Assembly: GCA_964356815.1 (NCBI GenBank)
Contig: CAYHIR010000002.1
Span: 7,418 to 71,417, forward strand
Reading direction: 5' to 3'
DNA length: 64,000 nt
From: an uncultured Candidatus Saccharibacteria bacterium
GTDB taxonomy: Bacteria > Patescibacteriota > Minisyncoccia > Phycocordibacterales > DATGWK01
Under the pieces are notes generated by a model that saw nothing but the letters and a program-made list of their open reading frames with translations, made no database searches and was not told the DNA's origin. The translations under genes were made by a program, and so were the position numbers. Positions within the stretch are counted from its first letter, which is position 1, and the number at the start of each line of letters is the position of its first letter. Below are positions 6,434-61,089 of the stretch, piece by piece.

Positions 6434-6952
6434 GTGCGCATGAATGAGGTTTGTCATCGGATGAATGACGAGAAACTGGATTTCCAAACATTTCTCATCG
6501 GCTGTCTTAGCCACGGTAAGCCTTTCCAAGATGAAGATACATCTGAGATGCTGGCTGTTCTCGAGCGTGATTGGGCACTTAAACAAAAACAATCTCTCGA
6601 GCAGGCTGAGCATGGTGCGCTCTTCGAAATGGCCGTTGAAGAGCTCGAGCAAAAGAAGACCCGGATCAAACGGAGGGTTGATTTGTTTGAAAAGACAATC
6701 AATGACTCGGGCTTGCTGACTGGTGGAAGCATCTTCACAAACGCAATCGAATGTCTAAGGGGCATTCATGGTGTGCAGGGGTTGAAGATAAGTTCAATCG
6801 GGTTCGATTCCGAAAAGTATAGACAACTAAAACTCGAGGAGCTGAAGAAGTTCCTCGGAAAAAGGTGTCGTACTCTTGAAGATGTCTGGCCCCACAGTGA
6901 CGGACCTCGTCAATTTGCTCGCGTGGTATACGAACTGGCACGCACAATCTAG
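6434..6952 (+). CDS. hypothetical protein (GC-rich cassette gene)
   Basis: SD AGAAGGAGG 6 nt before GTG at 6434 (ATG at 6440 is an alternative start). An extended -10 sits upstream and a weak hairpin plus T-run at about 6970-7010. No recognisable family. Confidence 0.45.
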   Translation: MRMNEVCHRMNDEKLDFQTFLIGCLSHGKPFQDEDTSEMLAVLERDWALKQKQSLEQAEHGALFEMAVEELEQKKTRIKRRVDLFEKTINDSGLLTGGSIFTNAIECLRGIHGVQGLKISSIGFDSEKYRQLKLEELKKFLGKRCRTLEDVWPHSDGPRQFARVVYELARTI

Positions 6953-7067
6953 CCAAGAGAAAAGAGAAACTAGCCCACGTGGTCAAACACGGAGGGCTTT
7001 TTTATTAAAGATTTTCAACTTCATCCTGTTCTGCTATACTGCCCATGGTTCTTTCTAGAAACAACAT

Positions 7068-7376
7068 TCCGCGATAGCTCAGCTGGTAGAGCGAGCGACT
7101 GTGAACAAAATCGCAGCTTCCCGAAGTAATTCGGGTTGAAAAACGAGGTTAATTGCTGGAAGCCCACCCGATCGAAAGATCGCGGGTAATCAGCAGCCGA
7201 GCCTGTCATTCGACAGGAAGGTTCAGAGACTATCCCTAACGGGAGTACTTGGCCGAAAGGTCTAGGAAACACCTCGCGCCCCATTTATTGGGGCGATGAT
7301 ATAGTCCATCCCTTTAAGAAATTTTAGGATCGATGTAATCGCTTGGTCGCAGGTTCGAGTCCTGCTCGCGGAGCCA
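7068..7376 (+). tRNA. tRNA-Asn (anticodon GUU) interrupted in the anticodon loop by a group I intron
   Basis: 5' half 7068-7102: acceptor TCCGCGA, D-arm GCTC/AGCTGGTA/GAGC, anticodon stem AGCGA, loop CTGT. 3' half 7336-7376: TAA, TCGCT, variable TGGTC, T-arm GCAGG/TTCGAGT/CCTGC, acceptor TCGCGGA, discriminator G, CCA. The spliced anticodon loop is CUGUUAA. Confidence 0.75.
7103..7335 (+). ncRNA. group I self-splicing intron (233 nt, no ORF)
   Basis: R element GTTCAGAGACTA (7221-7232) and S element GATATAGTCC (7298-7307) form P7. The 5' exon ends in U and can pair with intron GCAG (7113-7116) as P1. The terminal nucleotide is G (omega-G) at 7335. Confidence 0.7.
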
Positions 7377-7380
7377 AAAC

Positions 7381-7409
7381 TTGACTTTTCTATGAAAACC
7401 TGCTATCAT
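7381..7409 (+). promoter_or_regulatory. sigma70-like promoter TTGACT-N17-TATCAT
   Basis: Consensus spacing, immediately downstream of the tRNA and upstream of the ORF at 7479. Confidence 0.5.
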
Positions 7410-7478
7410 GGTAGTAGCGTTTTCCAGTACCTTGTAACCCCGGGTTTAAACAAACCCATAAGAACCAAAGGAGTAGCC

Positions 7479-7775
7479 ATGAATATCTCACTCACGGATC
7501 CAAAAACTCTCGTGATCAATGGAGAAGATACTGAGGTCGGAGAAGTCGCACGCGCTGTGGCAATCTTGATGGAAGAAGGAAAGATTCCAAAAGGTTGCAC
7601 ACTGAAGTATGGCGGGTTCTCCGGCAGTGGCGTTGCCCTGTGTGTAGCACTTTGCAACGTGGTCCGTGATTTTTTTGTGGTGTTCCCAGTTTGCGCTGAA
7701 CAACAGCCCGATGGGAAGTACCTCGTTCAGGCAAGTTTCGACCCTACCGTGAAAACCGGTGCGATCATTGACTAA
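7479..7775 (+). CDS. hypothetical small protein (GC-rich cassette gene)
   Basis: 98-aa ORF with SD AAAGGAG 5 nt before ATG. Good promoter upstream and a long hairpin terminator downstream. Confidence 0.45.
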   Translation: MNISLTDPKTLVINGEDTEVGEVARAVAILMEEGKIPKGCTLKYGGFSGSGVALCVALCNVVRDFFVVFPVCAEQQPDGKYLVQASFDPTVKTGAIID

Positions 7776-7776
7776 C

Positions 7777-7833
7777 CCCACCATCAACACAAAGAACGGA
7801 AAGCCCGTCACAAGTGTTGAGGTGGGTTTTCTG
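7777..7833 (+). terminator. rho-independent terminator
   Basis: CCCACCATCAACAC...GTGTTGAGGTGGG long stem followed by TTTTCTGTT. Confidence 0.6.
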
Positions 7834-7868
7834 TTATACAAATTATTTCAATTTGATATCGTTAAAGT

Positions 7869-8330
7869 ATGACCACAATAAACCCTTGGATTAACTTCAA
7901 CGGCAATGCTGAAGAAGCATTTACATTTTACAAATCAGTTTTTGGCGGTGAGTTTACAAAAATTATACGTTTCAAAGACCTGGCGAGCGCTGAATTCAAA
8001 GTTGCAGAAAAGGAGGAAAATAAAATTATGCATATTGCTTTGCCTATCGGTAACGGCGCAAAGTTAATTGCAAATGATGTCCCAGAATTTATGGGAAAAG
8101 TTAACGAAAACGAAAACAGGAGTAAAATTTCGATAAACACAGAAAGCAAAGAAGAAGCGGATAGATTATTTAATGGTCTTTCTGCTGGAGGAACAGTAGA
8201 AGGGCCTATGGGTGATAGTCCTTGGGGAACATACGCTGGTATGTTTAGGGATAAATACGGTATTGAGTGGATAATTGAATTTTCTACCGATGCCCACACC
8301 CAGCCCAACAGCAATAAATCGATAAAATGA
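7869..8330 (+). CDS. VOC-family (PhnB/glyoxalase-like) protein
   Basis: N-terminal INPWINFNGNAEEAFTFYKSVFGGE is characteristic of the PhnB-like VOC / 3-demethylubiquinone methyltransferase-like family. Confidence 0.7.
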   Translation: MTTINPWINFNGNAEEAFTFYKSVFGGEFTKIIRFKDLASAEFKVAEKEENKIMHIALPIGNGAKLIANDVPEFMGKVNENENRSKISINTESKEEADRLFNGLSAGGTVEGPMGDSPWGTYAGMFRDKYGIEWIIEFSTDAHTQPNSNKSIK

Positions 8331-8494
8331 GCACCAAATCTATCATCTGGATTTTCATGTTTATTGGCTCGACAATCGGTGGCTTTATTCCGACTCTTTG
8401 GGACGCTGGTTTTCTGTCTTTCTCTTCCCTACTTCTTACGGCCGTCGGCGGTCTTTTGGGTATTTGGTTGGCGTTTAAGTTGAATCATGGGTAA
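8327..8494 (+). CDS. small membrane protein (55 aa, 2 TM)
   Basis: ATG overlaps the stop of the upstream gene (ATGA). Two hydrophobic helices. Not in the >=60-aa ORF track. Confidence 0.35.
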   Translation: MSTKSIIWIFMFIGSTIGGFIPTLWDAGFLSFSSLLLTAVGGLLGIWLAFKLNHG

Positions 8495-8525
8495 ATGAGG
8501 ACGCGCGTTGGTGTATAATTTACAC

Positions 8526-8945
8526 ATGAAAAAAGAAAAAATTGTTTTACTGCTTCTTCGTTTATCAATGGGTTTTATTTTCCTATGGGCGTTTTTTGAT
8601 AAGGTTTTTGGTTTGGGATTTGCCACAACAGCCGAAAAAGCGTGGATCAATGGCGGCTCACCGACTTTTGGTTTTCTCTCCAATGCCGCAAAGGGTCCGT
8701 TTGCGGATATTTTTCACAGTCTCGCTGGCATGCCTGCTGTCGACTGGCTATTTATGCTCGGCCTACTTTTCGTTGGCCTTACACTCATATTCAACAAATT
8801 CGTAAAGTGGGGATGCTTAGCTGGCAGTGTGATGCTCCTTCTTATGTACCTCGCCCTTCTCTTACCCGAAAATAATCCGATCATAGACGATCACCTTGTA
8901 TACATTCTTGTTTTGGCACTTGTGGCTTTTAGAAGCGAGAACTAA
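8526..8945 (+). CDS. DoxX-family membrane protein
   Basis: Four-TM pattern with a DoxX-like N-terminus (LLRLSMGFIFLWAFFDK). Start chosen at MKKEK. Confidence 0.6.
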   Translation: MKKEKIVLLLLRLSMGFIFLWAFFDKVFGLGFATTAEKAWINGGSPTFGFLSNAAKGPFADIFHSLAGMPAVDWLFMLGLLFVGLTLIFNKFVKWGCLAGSVMLLLMYLALLLPENNPIIDDHLVYILVLALVAFRSEN

Positions 8946-55424: not shown

Positions 55425-55462
55425 AAGGTTCCGAACGGCTAATTACCTAAGGAGCCTTTTTC
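55425..55462. terminator. bidirectional rho-independent terminator
   Basis: AAAAAGGTTCC-loop-GGAGCCTTTTT between convergent dnaE and the NYN gene. Confidence 0.55.
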
Positions 55463-55980
55463 ATTTCTATTTTTCTTCTGGTGTCCCCATCATCAAGCGC
55501 CGCAAAACATGGTGCGCCAAGCTTGTCGTACAACGATGAAGCTCTCTCGCCGTCAGGAAAAAGAATTTTTTCAAGCTTTTGCTCGGTGATTAAAAAATCA
55601 ACAAGCTGTCTGTAGTCACCATCCCCAGAAACCAGCACGATTTTATCAAACAATTCTTTATAGTAGAGTTTTTTCATAACATTAAAAATAATGTCGGAAT
55701 CAACATTTCCTTTCTTTTTGCCAAGCATAAGTGATGTGTGTTCACGAAATAGCAAAATGAACCCGGCACTTTGTATGTTTTCATACAATGATTGCTGTGA
55801 TTCATCTAGATATCCCAAAAAATAAAAGGCTTTTGATACATCGTATTTTTTCTCAAGATAAACACGAAATCGCGCAAGATCAACTTTCCATGGGTCAATT
55901 TCTCGCTTTGCAGTACCTAGGTAAAGATTTTGTCCATCTATGAATGCGAGGTTTTTTATTTGTTCATCGTTTGTGGCCAT
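55447..55980 (-). CDS. NYN-domain (LabA-like, PIN-fold) protein
   Basis: AFIDGQNLY and LVSGDGDY acidic motifs of NYN nucleases. Confidence 0.65.
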   Translation of the reverse strand: MATNDEQIKNLAFIDGQNLYLGTAKREIDPWKVDLARFRVYLEKKYDVSKAFYFLGYLDESQQSLYENIQSAGFILLFREHTSLMLGKKKGNVDSDIIFNVMKKLYYKELFDKIVLVSGDGDYRQLVDFLITEQKLEKILFPDGERASSLYDKLGAPCFAALDDGDTRRKIEMKKAP

Positions 55981-56089
55981 TTTGGTATTACAAAACAGCA
56001 ATATAACAAAAGTTGGCTCAATATTTTTTTAAGAAATAATAAAGAATGAACGATTTGGCCTTTTACCCTAAAAAAGCTATTATTTTGAA

Positions 56090-57907
56090 ATGAAAAAAGA
56101 AAATTCTGACCCCAACTCCCTACCCGCCAAGCGCCACTCGCTCGCCCATCTTTTGGCCGCGGCTGTGCTTGAAATTCGCCCCGACACTCTCCCTTCCATC
56201 GGTCCAGCAATAGACGACGGTTTTTACTACGATTTTGATTTCAGCAACGGCGAGCCGATTTCTGAAAAAGATTTGGTGGCAATAGAAAAACGAATGCGAA
56301 AAATTTTGCCGTCGTGGAAAGAATTTTCACACAAAGAAGTTTCGGCGGCCGAGGCACGTGAAGTGTTTGCAAACAATCCATACAAACTTGAGCTCATAGA
56401 AGAAATAGAAAACGGCGCGGTGCAAACCGGCGAAAAAATTACTCTTTATACGATCGGCGAATTTACCGATCTTTGTCGTGGCGGTCATGTTGAAAATCCA
56501 GCGAAAGAAATCGATCCAGAATCTTTCAAACTCGATCGTGTGGCTGGTGCGTATTGGCGTGGTGATGAAAAAAATAAAATGCTTACACGCATTTACGGCC
56601 TCGCGTTTGAAACCGGTGCAGAGCTTGCGAGCCACATTGCGATGCGTGAAGAAGCTAAAAAGCGCGATCACAAAAAACTCGGCAAGGAGCTCGGGCTTTT
56701 CATTTTCTCCGATCTCGTTGGTCCTGGCCTGCCACTTTGGACACCGAAGGGCACAATCGTGCGAAATTTGCTCGACGATTATGTTTGGTCGCTCCGTCGC
56801 GAAAAAGGTTTCATGAAAGTTACAATCCCCCACATCACCAAAAAAGATCTTTACGAAACTTCTGGCCACTGGGGGAAATATGCTGACGGACTTTTCAAAA
56901 TTACCACGCGCGAAAATCATCTCTATGCCATGAAGCCAATGAATTGCCCGCATCATGCTCAAATTTTCGCCGCCACTCCAAAAAGCTACCGCGACATGCC
57001 ACAGCGCTACAGCGAAACCACCATGGTCTATCGCGATGAACAGTCTGGCGAGCTCTCCGGCCTCTCCCGCGTGCTTTCTATTACTCAAGACGACGCGCAT
57101 GTTTTCTGCCGTCAGAGCCAGATCGAGCAAGAAGTTTTTGCTATTTGGGACATCATCGATGAATTTTATGGCGTTTTTGGTTTTGAAGATTTAAAAATTC
57201 GCCTCTCGCGCCACGATCCATCACACTTCGAAAAATATCTCGGTACACCAGAGATCTGGAAAAACTCTGAAGCCGCGCTAACGAAACTGATCGAAAAGCG
57301 AGGTATCAAAGAATGGGTAGACGGCCTCGGTGAAGCTGCTATCTACGGCCCCAAGATCGATTTCATTGCCAAAGATTCTATCGGCCGCACGCTGCAAGTG
57401 GCCACAATCCAACTCGACTTCAATCAACCAAAAAACTTCGGTCTCACCTGCACAAATGAAAAAGGTGAGAAAGAAGATGTTGTGATGATTCACTGCGCCA
57501 TCATGGGATCAATCGAACGCTTCATGAGTGTACTTATCGAACACTACGCCGGTGCATTTCCATTCTGGCTCGCGCCTGTCCAAGTGGCCATCGTTCCCGT
57601 CTCCGAAGCACACGAAGAATACTCTCGCCAAATTTTAGAAAAAATAAAGGCGGAGAAAATCGACGGCGCCCAAATCCGCGCAGAACTTTTTCTCGCCGAC
57701 GATTCTCTTGGCAAACGCATCCGCGAAGCTAAAGTACAAAAAATTCCTTACACTCTCATCATTGGCGACAAAGAAATTGCAAACAGCGACGCAAGCGAAG
57801 CCAACCTAAACGCCACACTAGAAAACCGCGATAAAGGCAATCTCGGCGCCCTCTCCGTAGAAGAAATCATCGCGAAATTTAGAAAAGAAATTGAGGAGAA
57901 GAAATAG
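56090..57907 (+). CDS. thrS: threonyl-tRNA synthetase (lacks N-terminal TGS domain)
   Basis: Editing-domain remnant, class II core (HRDEQSGELSGLSRV), anticodon-binding C-terminus. Confidence 0.85.
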   Translation: MKKENSDPNSLPAKRHSLAHLLAAAVLEIRPDTLPSIGPAIDDGFYYDFDFSNGEPISEKDLVAIEKRMRKILPSWKEFSHKEVSAAEAREVFANNPYKLELIEEIENGAVQTGEKITLYTIGEFTDLCRGGHVENPAKEIDPESFKLDRVAGAYWRGDEKNKMLTRIYGLAFETGAELASHIAMREEAKKRDHKKLGKELGLFIFSDLVGPGLPLWTPKGTIVRNLLDDYVWSLRREKGFMKVTIPHITKKDLYETSGHWGKYADGLFKITTRENHLYAMKPMNCPHHAQIFAATPKSYRDMPQRYSETTMVYRDEQSGELSGLSRVLSITQDDAHVFCRQSQIEQEVFAIWDIIDEFYGVFGFEDLKIRLSRHDPSHFEKYLGTPEIWKNSEAALTKLIEKRGIKEWVDGLGEAAIYGPKIDFIAKDSIGRTLQVATIQLDFNQPKNFGLTCTNEKGEKEDVVMIHCAIMGSIERFMSVLIEHYAGAFPFWLAPVQVAIVPVSEAHEEYSRQILEKIKAEKIDGAQIRAELFLADDSLGKRIREAKVQKIPYTLIIGDKEIANSDASEANLNATLENRDKGNLGALSVEEIIAKFRKEIEEKK

Positions 57908-57987
57908 CTATTATCCAATTAAAATTAAAAGCCGTCCGTATGCAATGCCAATTGCTACGGACGGCTGTTCAGAAAGCCACAGAGACA

Positions 57988-58236
57988 TCACTCGATTTCT
58001 TTGATGATGACGTACACGACCCTACTCATTTCCGGCTTGGCGACTTGGGCCACCCTCACTTTTTCGCCCCTGTGGTAGAGATGATAGATTCCCCCAAGAG
58101 TCACCTTCATACCCGGTTGAAAATACTGGAGTTGAATAAGGTGATCACTAGCAGGATCCTGCCTCACAAAAACCCTGAGCTCCTTGCCAATCACAACCAC
58201 AGAACCACTACCTAGATTTGCATGAACAATGCCCAT
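57988..58236 (-). CDS. hypothetical small protein, paralog of 58549-58812 (GC-rich cassette gene)
   Basis: SD AAAGGAGAAAG 7 nt before ATG. C-terminal half aligns with the neighbour: PGMKVTLGG...RGEKVRVAQVAKPEMSRVVYVIIKEIE. Confidence 0.5.
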   Translation of the reverse strand: MGIVHANLGSGSVVVIGKELRVFVRQDPASDHLIQLQYFQPGMKVTLGGIYHLYHRGEKVRVAQVAKPEMSRVVYVIIKEIE

Positions 58237-58325
58237 CGTTCGCTTTCTCCTTTCATTTTAGATGGTTTCGATACACCCTCAACACATCTAATCTTATAAA
58301 AACAAAATAGTCAATAATTTTGGGC

Positions 58326-58372
58326 AAAAAAAAGCCCCCGAGACCAAAAATCGCGTTAGGCGTTCTCGGGGG
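58326..58372 (-). terminator. rho-independent terminator (minus strand) between the two paralog genes
   Basis: CCCCCGAGA-20 nt-TCTCGGGGG. On the minus strand it is followed by TTTTTTTT. Confidence 0.55.
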
Positions 58373-58548
58373 ACTTTGAGGGTCACAAGTAAAAATAATT
58401 GCGAAAGGGATAAACGGACACCTCCCGAAGAGCCATGCCCTTGCACTCTCCGAGAGGGTCCGCCACAGAAGGAAGGACTTATTACACTCCTGTTTACAGT
58501 TTATACGAGAGTTGAACCATCTGTCAACAAAAGCTTGGGGTGACACTC

Positions 58549-58812
58549 TCACTCAAGATCGTCAACGATCACAAAACTTGCCTGCGGCATCGCAGGAGCA
58601 ATGATCTGAGCAACTTTTCTCGTTGAGCCATCGCAGTGCTCTGTTCTGGATTCTCCAAGAGTGACCTGAGTACCCCACGGAATCAGACCATGATAAGAAA
58701 GTCCCTTTCTACTTCCCCCCCCTTCGCTTCTTCTAAAAAATCTGGCATCCTTGGTGAGCTTGAACACTGGCCCTTCTTTCTTTGGCTTTCGATACTTTTT
58801 CCTAGCACCCAT
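58549..58812 (-). CDS. hypothetical basic small protein, paralog of 57988-58236 (GC-rich cassette gene)
   Basis: SD AAGGAGAAAAC before ATG (MGARKKY). C-terminus WGTQVTLGE...STRKVAQIIAPAMPQASFVIVDDLE. Upstream the TGTGATTAAATAT motif is shared with the 2719-3288 gene. Confidence 0.5.
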   Translation of the reverse strand: MGARKKYRKPKKEGPVFKLTKDARFFRRSEGGGSRKGLSYHGLIPWGTQVTLGESRTEHCDGSTRKVAQIIAPAMPQASFVIVDDLE

Positions 58813-58950
58813 CGTTTTCTCCTTGTTAAAACGTCCCGCCATATTTAATCACACACAGTAAAAAAGTCCATACCCAGGCAAACTTATTGAGCCCAAAAAA
58901 AATTTGCGCCATGGTTTGCGAAAACTGCCGCAGAAAAATTTGTTTGGGCG

Positions 58951-61089
58951 TTAGATATCAATCGTCGCCTTCTTAGCATTCGACTGAATGAACGACTTTC
59001 GCGCTGGCACATCAGTACCCATGAGAATGTCGAAAACCTTGTCGGCATCTTGGGCGTCTACCACACCCACACGCTTCATCACGCGACGCTTTGGATCCAT
59101 GGTCGTCTCCCACAACTCTTCGGAATTCATTTCTCCAAGACCTTTGTAACGTTGAATTGAAATTTTATCTTTCTTTGGTGCGAGTTTGGATTTTTTGCCC
59201 GAAGCATCTTCGTCGGCGGCTTCTTCATTCTCTTCACCGTTTGCATTTTCTCCGTCACCTTCGCCATTCGCATCTTCCTCATCCCCAGCAATATCCTCCA
59301 TCTGCATACTAGCTTCTTTGCCGATGATGGCGATTTTTTCGTCGTCGTTGTAGGCGTAGAAAATTTCTTTACCTTTTTTTATTTTATAAAGCGGCGGCTG
59401 AGCGATGTAGATGTGGCCGGCATCGATAAGCGGACGGAAGAAACGATACAAAAGTGTGAGAATGAGTGTGCGAATGTGCGCACCGTCAACGTCGGCATCG
59501 GTAGCGATGACGATTTTGTGATAACGAAGCTTAGTGATATCGAAAGTGTCGCCAATGGCTGTGCCAAGTGCGAGCACGAGATTTTTGATCTGCTCAGAAC
59601 CGAGCATGCGGTCGAGCCTAGCGCGCTCAATATTTAAAATTTTACCGCGAAGTGGTAGCACCGCTTGCGTACGACGATCGCGACCGCTTTTGGCAGTACC
59701 ACCAGCAGAATCTCCTTCCACAATGAAGAGTTCGCTTTCTTCGGCGCTCGTGCCAGCTTGGCAATCGGCGAGCTTACCAGGCAAAGTCATGCCTTCGAGT
59801 GCGCCTTTGCGGAGCACGCTGTCTTTGGCGGCCTTGGCGGCTTTGCGGGCCTTCATGGCGAGCGTCACTTTGCCAATGATAGCCCGCGCATCTTCAGGGT
59901 TTTCTTCTAGGAAATAGGCAAACGCTTCGCTGAAAACTGTCTCCACCATACCGCGAGCTTCCACCGTACCAAGCTTGGCCTTTGTCTGACCTTCAAACTG
60001 CACTTCGCGAAGCTTTAAAGAAATAACGGCCGTGAGACCCTCCATCACATCGTCGCCAGTGAAAGAGTCGTCTTCTTTGCCGCCGCTCTTGCTACCACTG
60101 CCGCTGCCTCCCGCACTTTTGCGCACCAAAGTATTTATTGTGCGAGTGAGAGCCGTCTTAAAACCAGTGACATGCGTACCACCTTCGGAATTGTAGATAT
60201 TGTTGGCAAACGCGTTGAGACGGCTAGAAATGTCGTCGACATATTGGAGTGAAATTTCGACAGACTCATATTCATTGGTTTTTTTCTCAATGTAAAAAAT
60301 GTTTTTGTGAATTGGTTTGAGAGCGTTGTTGTAAAACTTTACGAGCGAATAGAGACCACCCTCAAAATAGAAAGATTGGGACGGCGCATTTGGCTTTAAA
60401 TCGCGCAAATAGAAAACTTCGTCTTCGAAAAAATCGCCTTTCATTGAGCCATCAGCCGCAACTTCGCGAGCATCGATGACGCTAATTCGCAAACCTTTCA
60501 CGAGGTAGGCTTGCTGGCGCATGTGAGACACGATGCGATTGAAATCGAAATCTTGTTTGCCGAAAATTTGCTCATCGGGCTGAAAGAAAACGATCGTGCC
60601 GTTTTGCTTCGTTGAAGCCACTTTTTTCACAGTCGCTTTTCTCTTGCCACGCACATATTCCTGCATATAAATGCCGCCCTCTTTGTGCACCACGACTTTT
60701 GTATATTCTGAAAGCGCGTTTACAACAGACGCGCCCACGCCGTGCAAACCGCCAGATACTTTATAACCTTCGCCACCAAATTTTCCTCCGGCATGCAAAG
60801 TGGTCATGATCGTCTCGAGCGCTGAAACTTTCGTTTGCTTATGCATATCGACAGGAATACCGCGGCCGTTGTCTACTACACGCACATGATTGTCGGGCAA
60901 AAGGGCGATCTCGATGTCGTTCGCAAAACCACCCATCGCTTCGTCGCGGGAATTGTCGAAAATTTCGGTGACCAAATGATGAAAACCGTCCGGACCCGTT
61001 GTACCAATGTACATACCCGGCCTCTTGCGTACTGGCTCTAAGCCCTCAAGTACGGAAATATCCGACGCTGTATAGTTTGATTTGGCCAT
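58951..61089 (-). CDS. gyrB: DNA gyrase subunit B (type IIA topoisomerase B) with Gly/Ser and acidic low-complexity insertions
   Basis: GHKL ATPase N-terminus, TOPRIM EGDSAGG and PLRGKILN. Acidic insert GDEEDANGEGDGENANGEENEE near the C-terminus. Confidence 0.85.
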   Translation of the reverse strand: MAKSNYTASDISVLEGLEPVRKRPGMYIGTTGPDGFHHLVTEIFDNSRDEAMGGFANDIEIALLPDNHVRVVDNGRGIPVDMHKQTKVSALETIMTTLHAGGKFGGEGYKVSGGLHGVGASVVNALSEYTKVVVHKEGGIYMQEYVRGKRKATVKKVASTKQNGTIVFFQPDEQIFGKQDFDFNRIVSHMRQQAYLVKGLRISVIDAREVAADGSMKGDFFEDEVFYLRDLKPNAPSQSFYFEGGLYSLVKFYNNALKPIHKNIFYIEKKTNEYESVEISLQYVDDISSRLNAFANNIYNSEGGTHVTGFKTALTRTINTLVRKSAGGSGSGSKSGGKEDDSFTGDDVMEGLTAVISLKLREVQFEGQTKAKLGTVEARGMVETVFSEAFAYFLEENPEDARAIIGKVTLAMKARKAAKAAKDSVLRKGALEGMTLPGKLADCQAGTSAEESELFIVEGDSAGGTAKSGRDRRTQAVLPLRGKILNIERARLDRMLGSEQIKNLVLALGTAIGDTFDITKLRYHKIVIATDADVDGAHIRTLILTLLYRFFRPLIDAGHIYIAQPPLYKIKKGKEIFYAYNDDEKIAIIGKEASMQMEDIAGDEEDANGEGDGENANGEENEEAADEDASGKKSKLAPKKDKISIQRYKGLGEMNSEELWETTMDPKRRVMKRVGVVDAQDADKVFDILMGTDVPARKSFIQSNAKKATIDI

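Follow-up and report, generated by a model that had tools for sequence, protein, structure and literature searches.

A tandem pair of paralogous orphan genes with a predicted SH3b-like fold between thrS and gyrB in a Patescibacteria genome from groundwater

What are two very short open reading frames (ORFs), lying in tandem between the housekeeping genes thrS and gyrB of a groundwater bacterium? The locus belongs to a 64-kb stretch of DNA (hereafter the window) from a metagenome-assembled genome (MAG) of Patescibacteria, Paceibacteria/Nomurabacteria-like, recovered from Hainich groundwater. An original prediction, made from the letters of the window, described the two ORFs as a duplicated module of small proteins and offered a toxin/antitoxin-like pair, a phage-derived pair or a new small-protein family as explanations. 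Both ORFs sit at the coordinates claimed for them:

58549-58812, minus strand: ORF A, 87 amino acids, annotated at NCBI as hypothetical protein AAB726_00015
57988-58236, minus strand: ORF B, 82 amino acids, annotated at NCBI as hypothetical protein AAB726_00010

Two paralogous genes of an extremely rare family

A and B are real paralogous genes. The two proteins are 30% identical over 74 residues by BLASTP (E = 3e-7), and their Smith-Waterman score of 62 was reached in none of 20,000 shuffles of B (mean 22.5, standard deviation 3.9, maximum 50; z = 10.1). The alignable domain that the original prediction had claimed for the pair thus stands well clear of shuffled controls, and the motif that it quoted, (W/P)G(T/M)(Q/K)VTLG ... 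G ... (K/R)VAQ ... P.M ... VI...E, is found in both. Both proteins also begin with MG.

Orthologues are known on two short contigs. That of A, 78% identical, lies on the 906-nucleotide (nt) contig L001 from Hainich well H51, and that of B, the 85-amino-acid protein P0004, lies directly upstream of a convergent thrS on the 673-nt contig L008. Both A and B are under purifying selection. Between A and its orthologue, nonsynonymous divergence (dN) is 0.129 and synonymous divergence (dS) 0.707, a dN/dS of ~0.18; between B and P0004, dN is 0.60 with dS saturated at ~2. P0004 mixes features of the two paralogues, having KDARVF and SFVIVEEL as in A and LGGIYHMY as in B. Frame, Shine-Dalgarno (SD) sequence and promoter are retained in the orthologues. 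On the opposite strand, an antisense ORF of 91 amino acids (57940-58215, plus strand) overlaps B and was the gene caller's choice over B on contigs L002 and L004, which are identical to the window across the A/B region. The minus-strand reading of B is nevertheless correct, because the antisense frame is not preserved in L008, the contig on which this was checked. The annotation of B is therefore inconsistent among assemblies, the antisense ORF being called in some, and needs correcting.

Signals for transcription and translation accompany each gene:

58819-58824, minus strand: SD of A, AAGGAG, 6 nt before the ATG
58247-58252, minus strand: SD of B, AAGGAG
58843-58870, minus strand: promoter-like element of A, TGGACT-16-TTAAAT
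58286-58314, minus strand: promoter-like element of B, TTGACT-17-TTAGAT
57921-57965, minus strand: terminator-like hairpin of B, between B and thrS, GCCGTCCGTA-N15-TACGGACGGC (the hairpin itself at 57931-57965) followed by TTTTAATTTT
L001, in the place equivalent to that in A: promoter-like element of the A orthologue, TTGACA-18-TAGACT
L008: promoter-like element of the B orthologue, TTGACC-17-TTAGAT

The SDs are near-identical, as originally described, with AAGGAGAAA ahead of both start codons. The upstream regions of A, B and the two orthologues align through a T-run, a -35-like element, GATTA(A/G)AT and the SD, suggesting that the duplication copied promoter, SD and coding sequence. When the region between A and B was compared with L008 by nhmmer, the match (E = 6e-7) covered the B promoter and leader only (spacer positions 213-303). 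The terminator-like hairpin of B was overlooked by the hairpin scanner owing to its 15-nt loop and was read from the sequence. Each ORF had been credited with its own promoter, SD and terminator; of these, the SDs, the promoter-like elements (conserved in orthologues) and the terminator of B stand, while the hairpin between the ORFs that was assigned to A is not directly A's. From this arrangement, we infer that A and B are separate monocistronic units.

The family to which they belong is lineage-restricted ("orphan") and extremely rare. An exhaustive hidden Markov model (HMM) search of 1.84 billion representative proteins identified four true members (A, B, P0003 and P0004), and word-index searches of 5.8 billion clusters recovered only the same four. 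A further candidate, the 1310-amino-acid P0005 (E = 3.6e-6), was rejected since its match is made up of eight near-identical tail-fibre-like repeats of ~5 bits each. Pattern and tblastn searches of GTDB species genomes, JGI metagenomes and IMG/VR returned no homologues or co-occurring pairs beyond the same strain. None of 80 thrS loci of GTDB relatives contains a family member, and neither a third paralogue nor a pseudogene copy in the spacer was found anywhere in the window.

Searches against known families gave a similar picture. Neither protein matched a Pfam-A family by hmmscan at E <= 10, NCBIfam gave chance matches only (E of ~0.08-0.1), and PHROGs and PADLOC provided no credible match. 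The statement that the pair belongs to no recognised family is borne out by these searches, and "new small-protein family" is a fair description for four true members among 1.84 billion representatives. A profile match to the Helicobacter pylori gamma-glutamyltranspeptidase in the PDB (E = 4e-4) was rejected on its per-domain E-values of 0.16 and 160; the stretch matched in that enzyme presumably includes helix, whereas A and B are modelled as all-beta.

Genomes of the candidate phyla radiation (CPR) often contain small genes of restricted taxonomic range as well as tandem duplicates, and AGNOSTOS-type surveys reportedly treat taxonomically restricted (orphan) gene families. Like other orphan families of Patescibacteria/CPR, A and B encode short hypothetical proteins, lack homologues beyond a narrow clade and sit in a small genome where such genes abound. 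They differ from the usual ones in that a fold can be assigned, purifying selection is evident and a duplication history can be traced. The confinement of the family to a few groundwater samples limits its wider importance.

Predicted fold and possible binding partners

All four members of the family carry net positive charge, with isoelectric points (pI) between 9.4 and 10.4. A has a pI of 10.1, a net charge of ~+8 and a Lys/Arg-rich tail at the N-terminus, with K or R at 7 of the first 14 positions; B has a pI of 9.5. The maximum 15-residue Kyte-Doolittle hydropathy is at most 1.46 in all four, suggesting that family members have no signal peptide or membrane segment. An extracytoplasmic context was not found either, as A and B are free-standing (82 to 87 amino acids) and unfused, and the N-terminus of A is Lys/Arg-rich rather than hydrophobic. 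No catalytic motifs were found in A or B.

AlphaFold2 (AF2) models of the two proteins share the same six strands in the same order and a short C-terminal helix, with disorder at the N-terminus of each (~12 residues in A, 7 in B). The predicted local distance difference test (pLDDT) and predicted template modelling (pTM) scores are 74.6 and 0.57 for A and 80.3 and 0.68 for B. Both models have the SH3b-type small beta-barrel fold. The highest structural scores were obtained for teichoic-acid-binding domains of SlpA (7.6 and 7.5), followed by SlpX (6.2), the SH3b domain of lysostaphin (6.1), LytB (6.1), the C-terminal domain of TagH (6.0), NlpC/P60 SH3b modules (5.0-6.0) and several endolysin wall-binding domains (5.0-5.5). 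CarD/CdnL, the KOW domain of Spt5, eukaryotic SH3 and OapB scored 4.1 to 4.6. Among the Foldseek matches, those of higher probability (not all of them top-ranked) were of SH3 type, including ALE-1 (probability 0.98) and a phage "SH3 domain protein". The suggestion that the fold may be KOW/SH3-like was thus right at the level of the fold, which the models and structural matches define more exactly as SH3b-like; neither an HMM match to KOW (PF00467) nor a KOW motif in the hairpin of strands 1 and 2 was detected.

The predicted fold class of A and B is therefore an SH3b-type small beta-barrel. The family is new in sequence and known in fold, and its free-standing, basic and signal-less form is unusual. 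Compared with bacterial SH3b domains (lysostaphin/ALE-1, NlpC/P60, endolysins, SlpA/SlpX), A and B lack sequence similarity, with 5-13% identity in structural alignments and no match to Pfam SH3_3, SH3_4, SH3_5, SH3_8 or SLAP at E <= 10. Known SH3b systems are fused to a hydrolase or S-layer protein, whereas A and B are free-standing; unlike those systems, A and B have no signal peptide, and A has a Lys/Arg-rich tail. If this assignment is true, they would bring a further sequence family into the already very large fold of SH3-like small beta-barrels, one with free-standing, basic and probably cytoplasmic members whose closest structural relatives are extracellular wall binders.

Taken jointly, it is very likely that A and B are real paralogous genes of an orphan family, have an SH3b-like fold and are independent units. 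Three observations weigh against this. The AF2 models were built on an alignment of four sequences, and Foldseek searches of the PDB and BFVD gave nothing at E <= 1e-3. On L004 (coverage 3), a G>T change at position ~633, which corresponds to 58182 in the window, turns codon 19 of B from GAG to TAG; the explanation is an error of sequencing or a rare null allele of B, and the change, if real, would imply that part of the population can do without B. That stop codon and the callers' preference for the antisense ORF on two contigs might suggest chance reading frames rather than genes, but this explanation is refuted by the dN/dS of A and the shuffle test, is at odds with the frame, SD and promoter preserved in the orthologues and with the confidently predicted fold, and has next to no probability left.

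As to function, we tentatively propose that A and B bind a polyanion in the cytoplasm, most probably RNA or DNA, without acting as enzymes, and that they diverged after duplication; the ligand is deduced from protein properties, and we regard this proposal as possible rather than probable. It draws on the basic character of all members, their apparent lack of signal peptides and catalytic motifs, and a fold associated with binding. Small beta-barrels very often bind nucleic acid or protein, and also glycopolymers, and their nucleic-acid binding is tuned by surface charge (bioRxiv 10.1101/140376). Local tandem duplication of a unit including promoter and SD would have produced A and B as separately transcribed genes, each acting as a binding module for a polyanionic partner, for which nucleic acid is the most probable candidate. 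The disordered Lys/Arg tail of A would add electrostatic affinity, and divergence to ~30% identity may have given the two proteins different partners or made them subunits of a hetero-oligomer.

Alternatively, the barrels could serve as protein-protein adaptors that dock on RNA polymerase (as the N-domain of CarD/CdnL does), the ribosome or gyrase. This is unlikely. The CarD/CdnL-type structural matches are weaker than the SH3b ones, and the family is too rare for a general factor. That A and B lie near gyrB and thrS means little, because the slot between these genes is variable among relatives. More broadly, the small-barrel binders of nucleic acid and polymerase (KOW of Spt5/NusG, the N-domain of CarD/CdnL, Tudor and OapB) have structural scores below those of SH3b domains, and neither protein matches KOW, CarD or Tudor in Pfam.

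The best structural matches instead favour the canonical SH3b role, in which A and B would bind an envelope polymer (the stem or bridge of peptidoglycan, or a polyol phosphate resembling teichoic acid) after non-classical export or while it is a cytoplasmic precursor. However, this role is difficult to reconcile with the lack of a signal peptide or membrane segment, with proteins that are free-standing instead of fused to a hydrolase or S-layer module, and with the failure of SH3_3, SH3_5 and SLAP to match even at the permissive Pfam threshold. We consider it rather improbable and prefer the cytoplasmic polyanion binding proposed above.

The spacer between the two genes

A and B are separated by 312 nt, and this spacer contains more than the leader of B:

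58500-58527, minus strand: near-consensus promoter TTGACA-16-TATAAA, beginning 21 nt after the stop codon of A
58326-58493, minus strand: candidate structured transcript of ~170 nt, its ends inferred from promoter and terminator
58413-58464, minus strand: long hairpin of 52 nt within the candidate transcript
58326-58372, minus strand: intrinsic-terminator-like hairpin, CCCCCGAGA-N20-TCTCGGGGG followed by C and T8

The hairpin with stem CCCCCGAGA/TCTCGGGGG and its U-run, which had been reported between the ORFs, is present at 58372-58326. It lies 177-223 nt past the stop codon of A, behind the near-consensus promoter and the 52-nt hairpin. A hairpin also occupies this position ahead of the B orthologue in L008; its stem sequence differs (CCCCGTAC/GTGCGGGG), and it lacks a U-run. 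Past the stop codon of the A orthologue in L001, the element TTGATC-16-TAAATT occupies the position corresponding to that of the near-consensus promoter, just ahead of the contig end. The candidate RNA, predicted to form the 52-nt hairpin and the terminator, has a folding energy of -66 kcal/mol (z = -4.2), and none of 200 shuffles was as stable. The spacer also holds a 17-codon ORF, MALREVSVYPFRNYFYL, with its ATG at 58436 in the loop of the long hairpin. These features make 58326-58527 a candidate gene for a small RNA or a small peptide, and three readings suit the ~170-nt region: a small RNA of its own, a long, structured 3' untranslated region (UTR) belonging to A, or a scar left by the duplication.

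Could the spacer RNA and the two proteins form one system? In a three-part RNA-protein module, a small RNA of ~170 nt, independently transcribed, would be bound by the barrel proteins encoded on either side of it, so that the RNA (58493-58326) and the two diverged barrels would make up an undescribed small ribonucleoprotein of one Patescibacteria lineage. Consistent with such a module are the near-consensus promoter right after the stop codon of A, whose position is kept in L001, the stable fold, the strong terminator at its end and the basic character of both flanking proteins, as well as units of promoter, structured non-coding sequence and terminator that L001 carries just upstream of its A orthologue. 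However, the RNA lacks a homologue that could supply covariation (nhmmer against all loci compared found none for the structured part), and the 90 nt available of the equivalent region in L008 cannot be aligned to it. No Rfam family matched the spacer (E <= 1) or L001, the single hit, to atpB at E = 0.25, being due to chance, and the region may simply be the 3' UTR of A plus a duplication scar. We consider the module very unlikely; if it were true that the proteins partner with a structured RNA encoded between them, the wider importance of A and B would rise.

The upstream part of L001 (positions 1-574) comprises ~570 nt with no gyrB, no convincing ORF and no similarity to anything in the window. 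It contains a promoter, TTGACA-17-TATTTT (17-45), a stable predicted fold (z = -3.5) and two terminator-like hairpins (~268-300 and ~498-535), after which the A promoter follows.

Origin of the pair in the thrS-gyrB slot

The neighbours proposed for the pair are confirmed by Pfam domains of ThrS and GyrB:

56090-57907, plus strand: thrS, convergent with ORF B
58951-61089, minus strand: gyrB

The slot between them (~1 kb) contains ORF A, ORF B and the spacer only. Among GTDB representatives, the closest ThrS proteins are 64% identical and belong to Nomurabacteria/Paceibacteria-type MAGs. The convergent arrangement of thrS and gyrB is kept in at least 14 of these Paceibacteria-type relatives (within loci L010-L056), with a stop-to-stop gap of 52 to 2154 nt in 14 of them. 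In some of these genomes the gap leaves no room for a gene; in others it contains ORFs that are related neither to A and B nor among themselves. Judged by eye, the products of these ORFs (~6700-8900 in locus coordinates) include ones resembling a pilin, a membrane protein of transporter type, ClpP, an ITPase/Maf-type enzyme and uracil-DNA glycosylase. Comparison of the loci suggests that the gap looks like a hotspot of gene gain. Since the slot is variable and none of the loci of GTDB relatives has a family member, the pair appears to be lineage-specific cargo in a variable slot. The locus is an example of how CPR/Patescibacteria genomes acquire very small lineage-specific genes, and duplicate them, in variable slots that separate conserved housekeeping genes.

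The variability of the slot, together with the fact that mobile elements typically carry small orphan genes, raises the possibility that A and B are a phage or mobile-element remnant inserted between thrS and gyrB, the phage-derived pair of the original prediction. Viral and plasmid matches are lacking: PHROGs and IMG/VR contigs gave none, tblastn found nothing at E <= 1 in GenBank phages (A and B) or in PLSDB plasmids (B only), and the best Foldseek E-value against BFVD was 0.014. The slot has no integrase, flanking repeats or tRNA, and its neighbours are housekeeping genes. Both ORFs had also been called GC-rich, but their guanine-plus-cytosine (GC) content (48.1% in A, 48.2% in B) is at the level of thrS (47.4%) and gyrB (48.6%), in a window of 45.9%, and is not distinctive. 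A GC content of 48% against 47-49% in the flanking genes speaks against an insertion, and foreign origin on account of composition was dropped as an argument. A mobile origin is thus highly improbable.

Even less credible is a toxin-antitoxin-like pair, which fails because a one-operon layout, two non-homologous components and similarity to a known family are all missing here. As in type II toxin-antitoxin modules, the two genes are small and adjacent, and SH3-like barrels include the MazF and CcdB toxins (SCOP fold b.34). Unlike such modules, A and B are paralogous to each other along their 74 aligned residues, not a toxin with an unrelated antitoxin, and they are apparently not co-transcribed, as the 312-nt spacer has a T8 terminator hairpin and a second promoter, whose promoter-like block is kept in L008 ahead of the B orthologue. 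No known toxin or antitoxin family was matched, with neither Pfam nor PADLOC giving a hit.

Two further features of the window lie outside the slot. A protein of 177-184 amino acids with a NYN domain (PF01936) is encoded between dnaE and thrS (55447-56001, minus strand). At ~7068-7376 on the plus strand, a group I intron (7093-7328; 70.9 bits to Rfam RF00028) splits a tRNA gene. ARAGORN called no tRNA there in the intact window and called one once the intron had been removed in silico. An alternative junction would produce a tRNA for His (GUG) but violates the rule that the intron ends in G, whereas splicing after U7102 and after G7335 yields tRNA-Asn (GUU).
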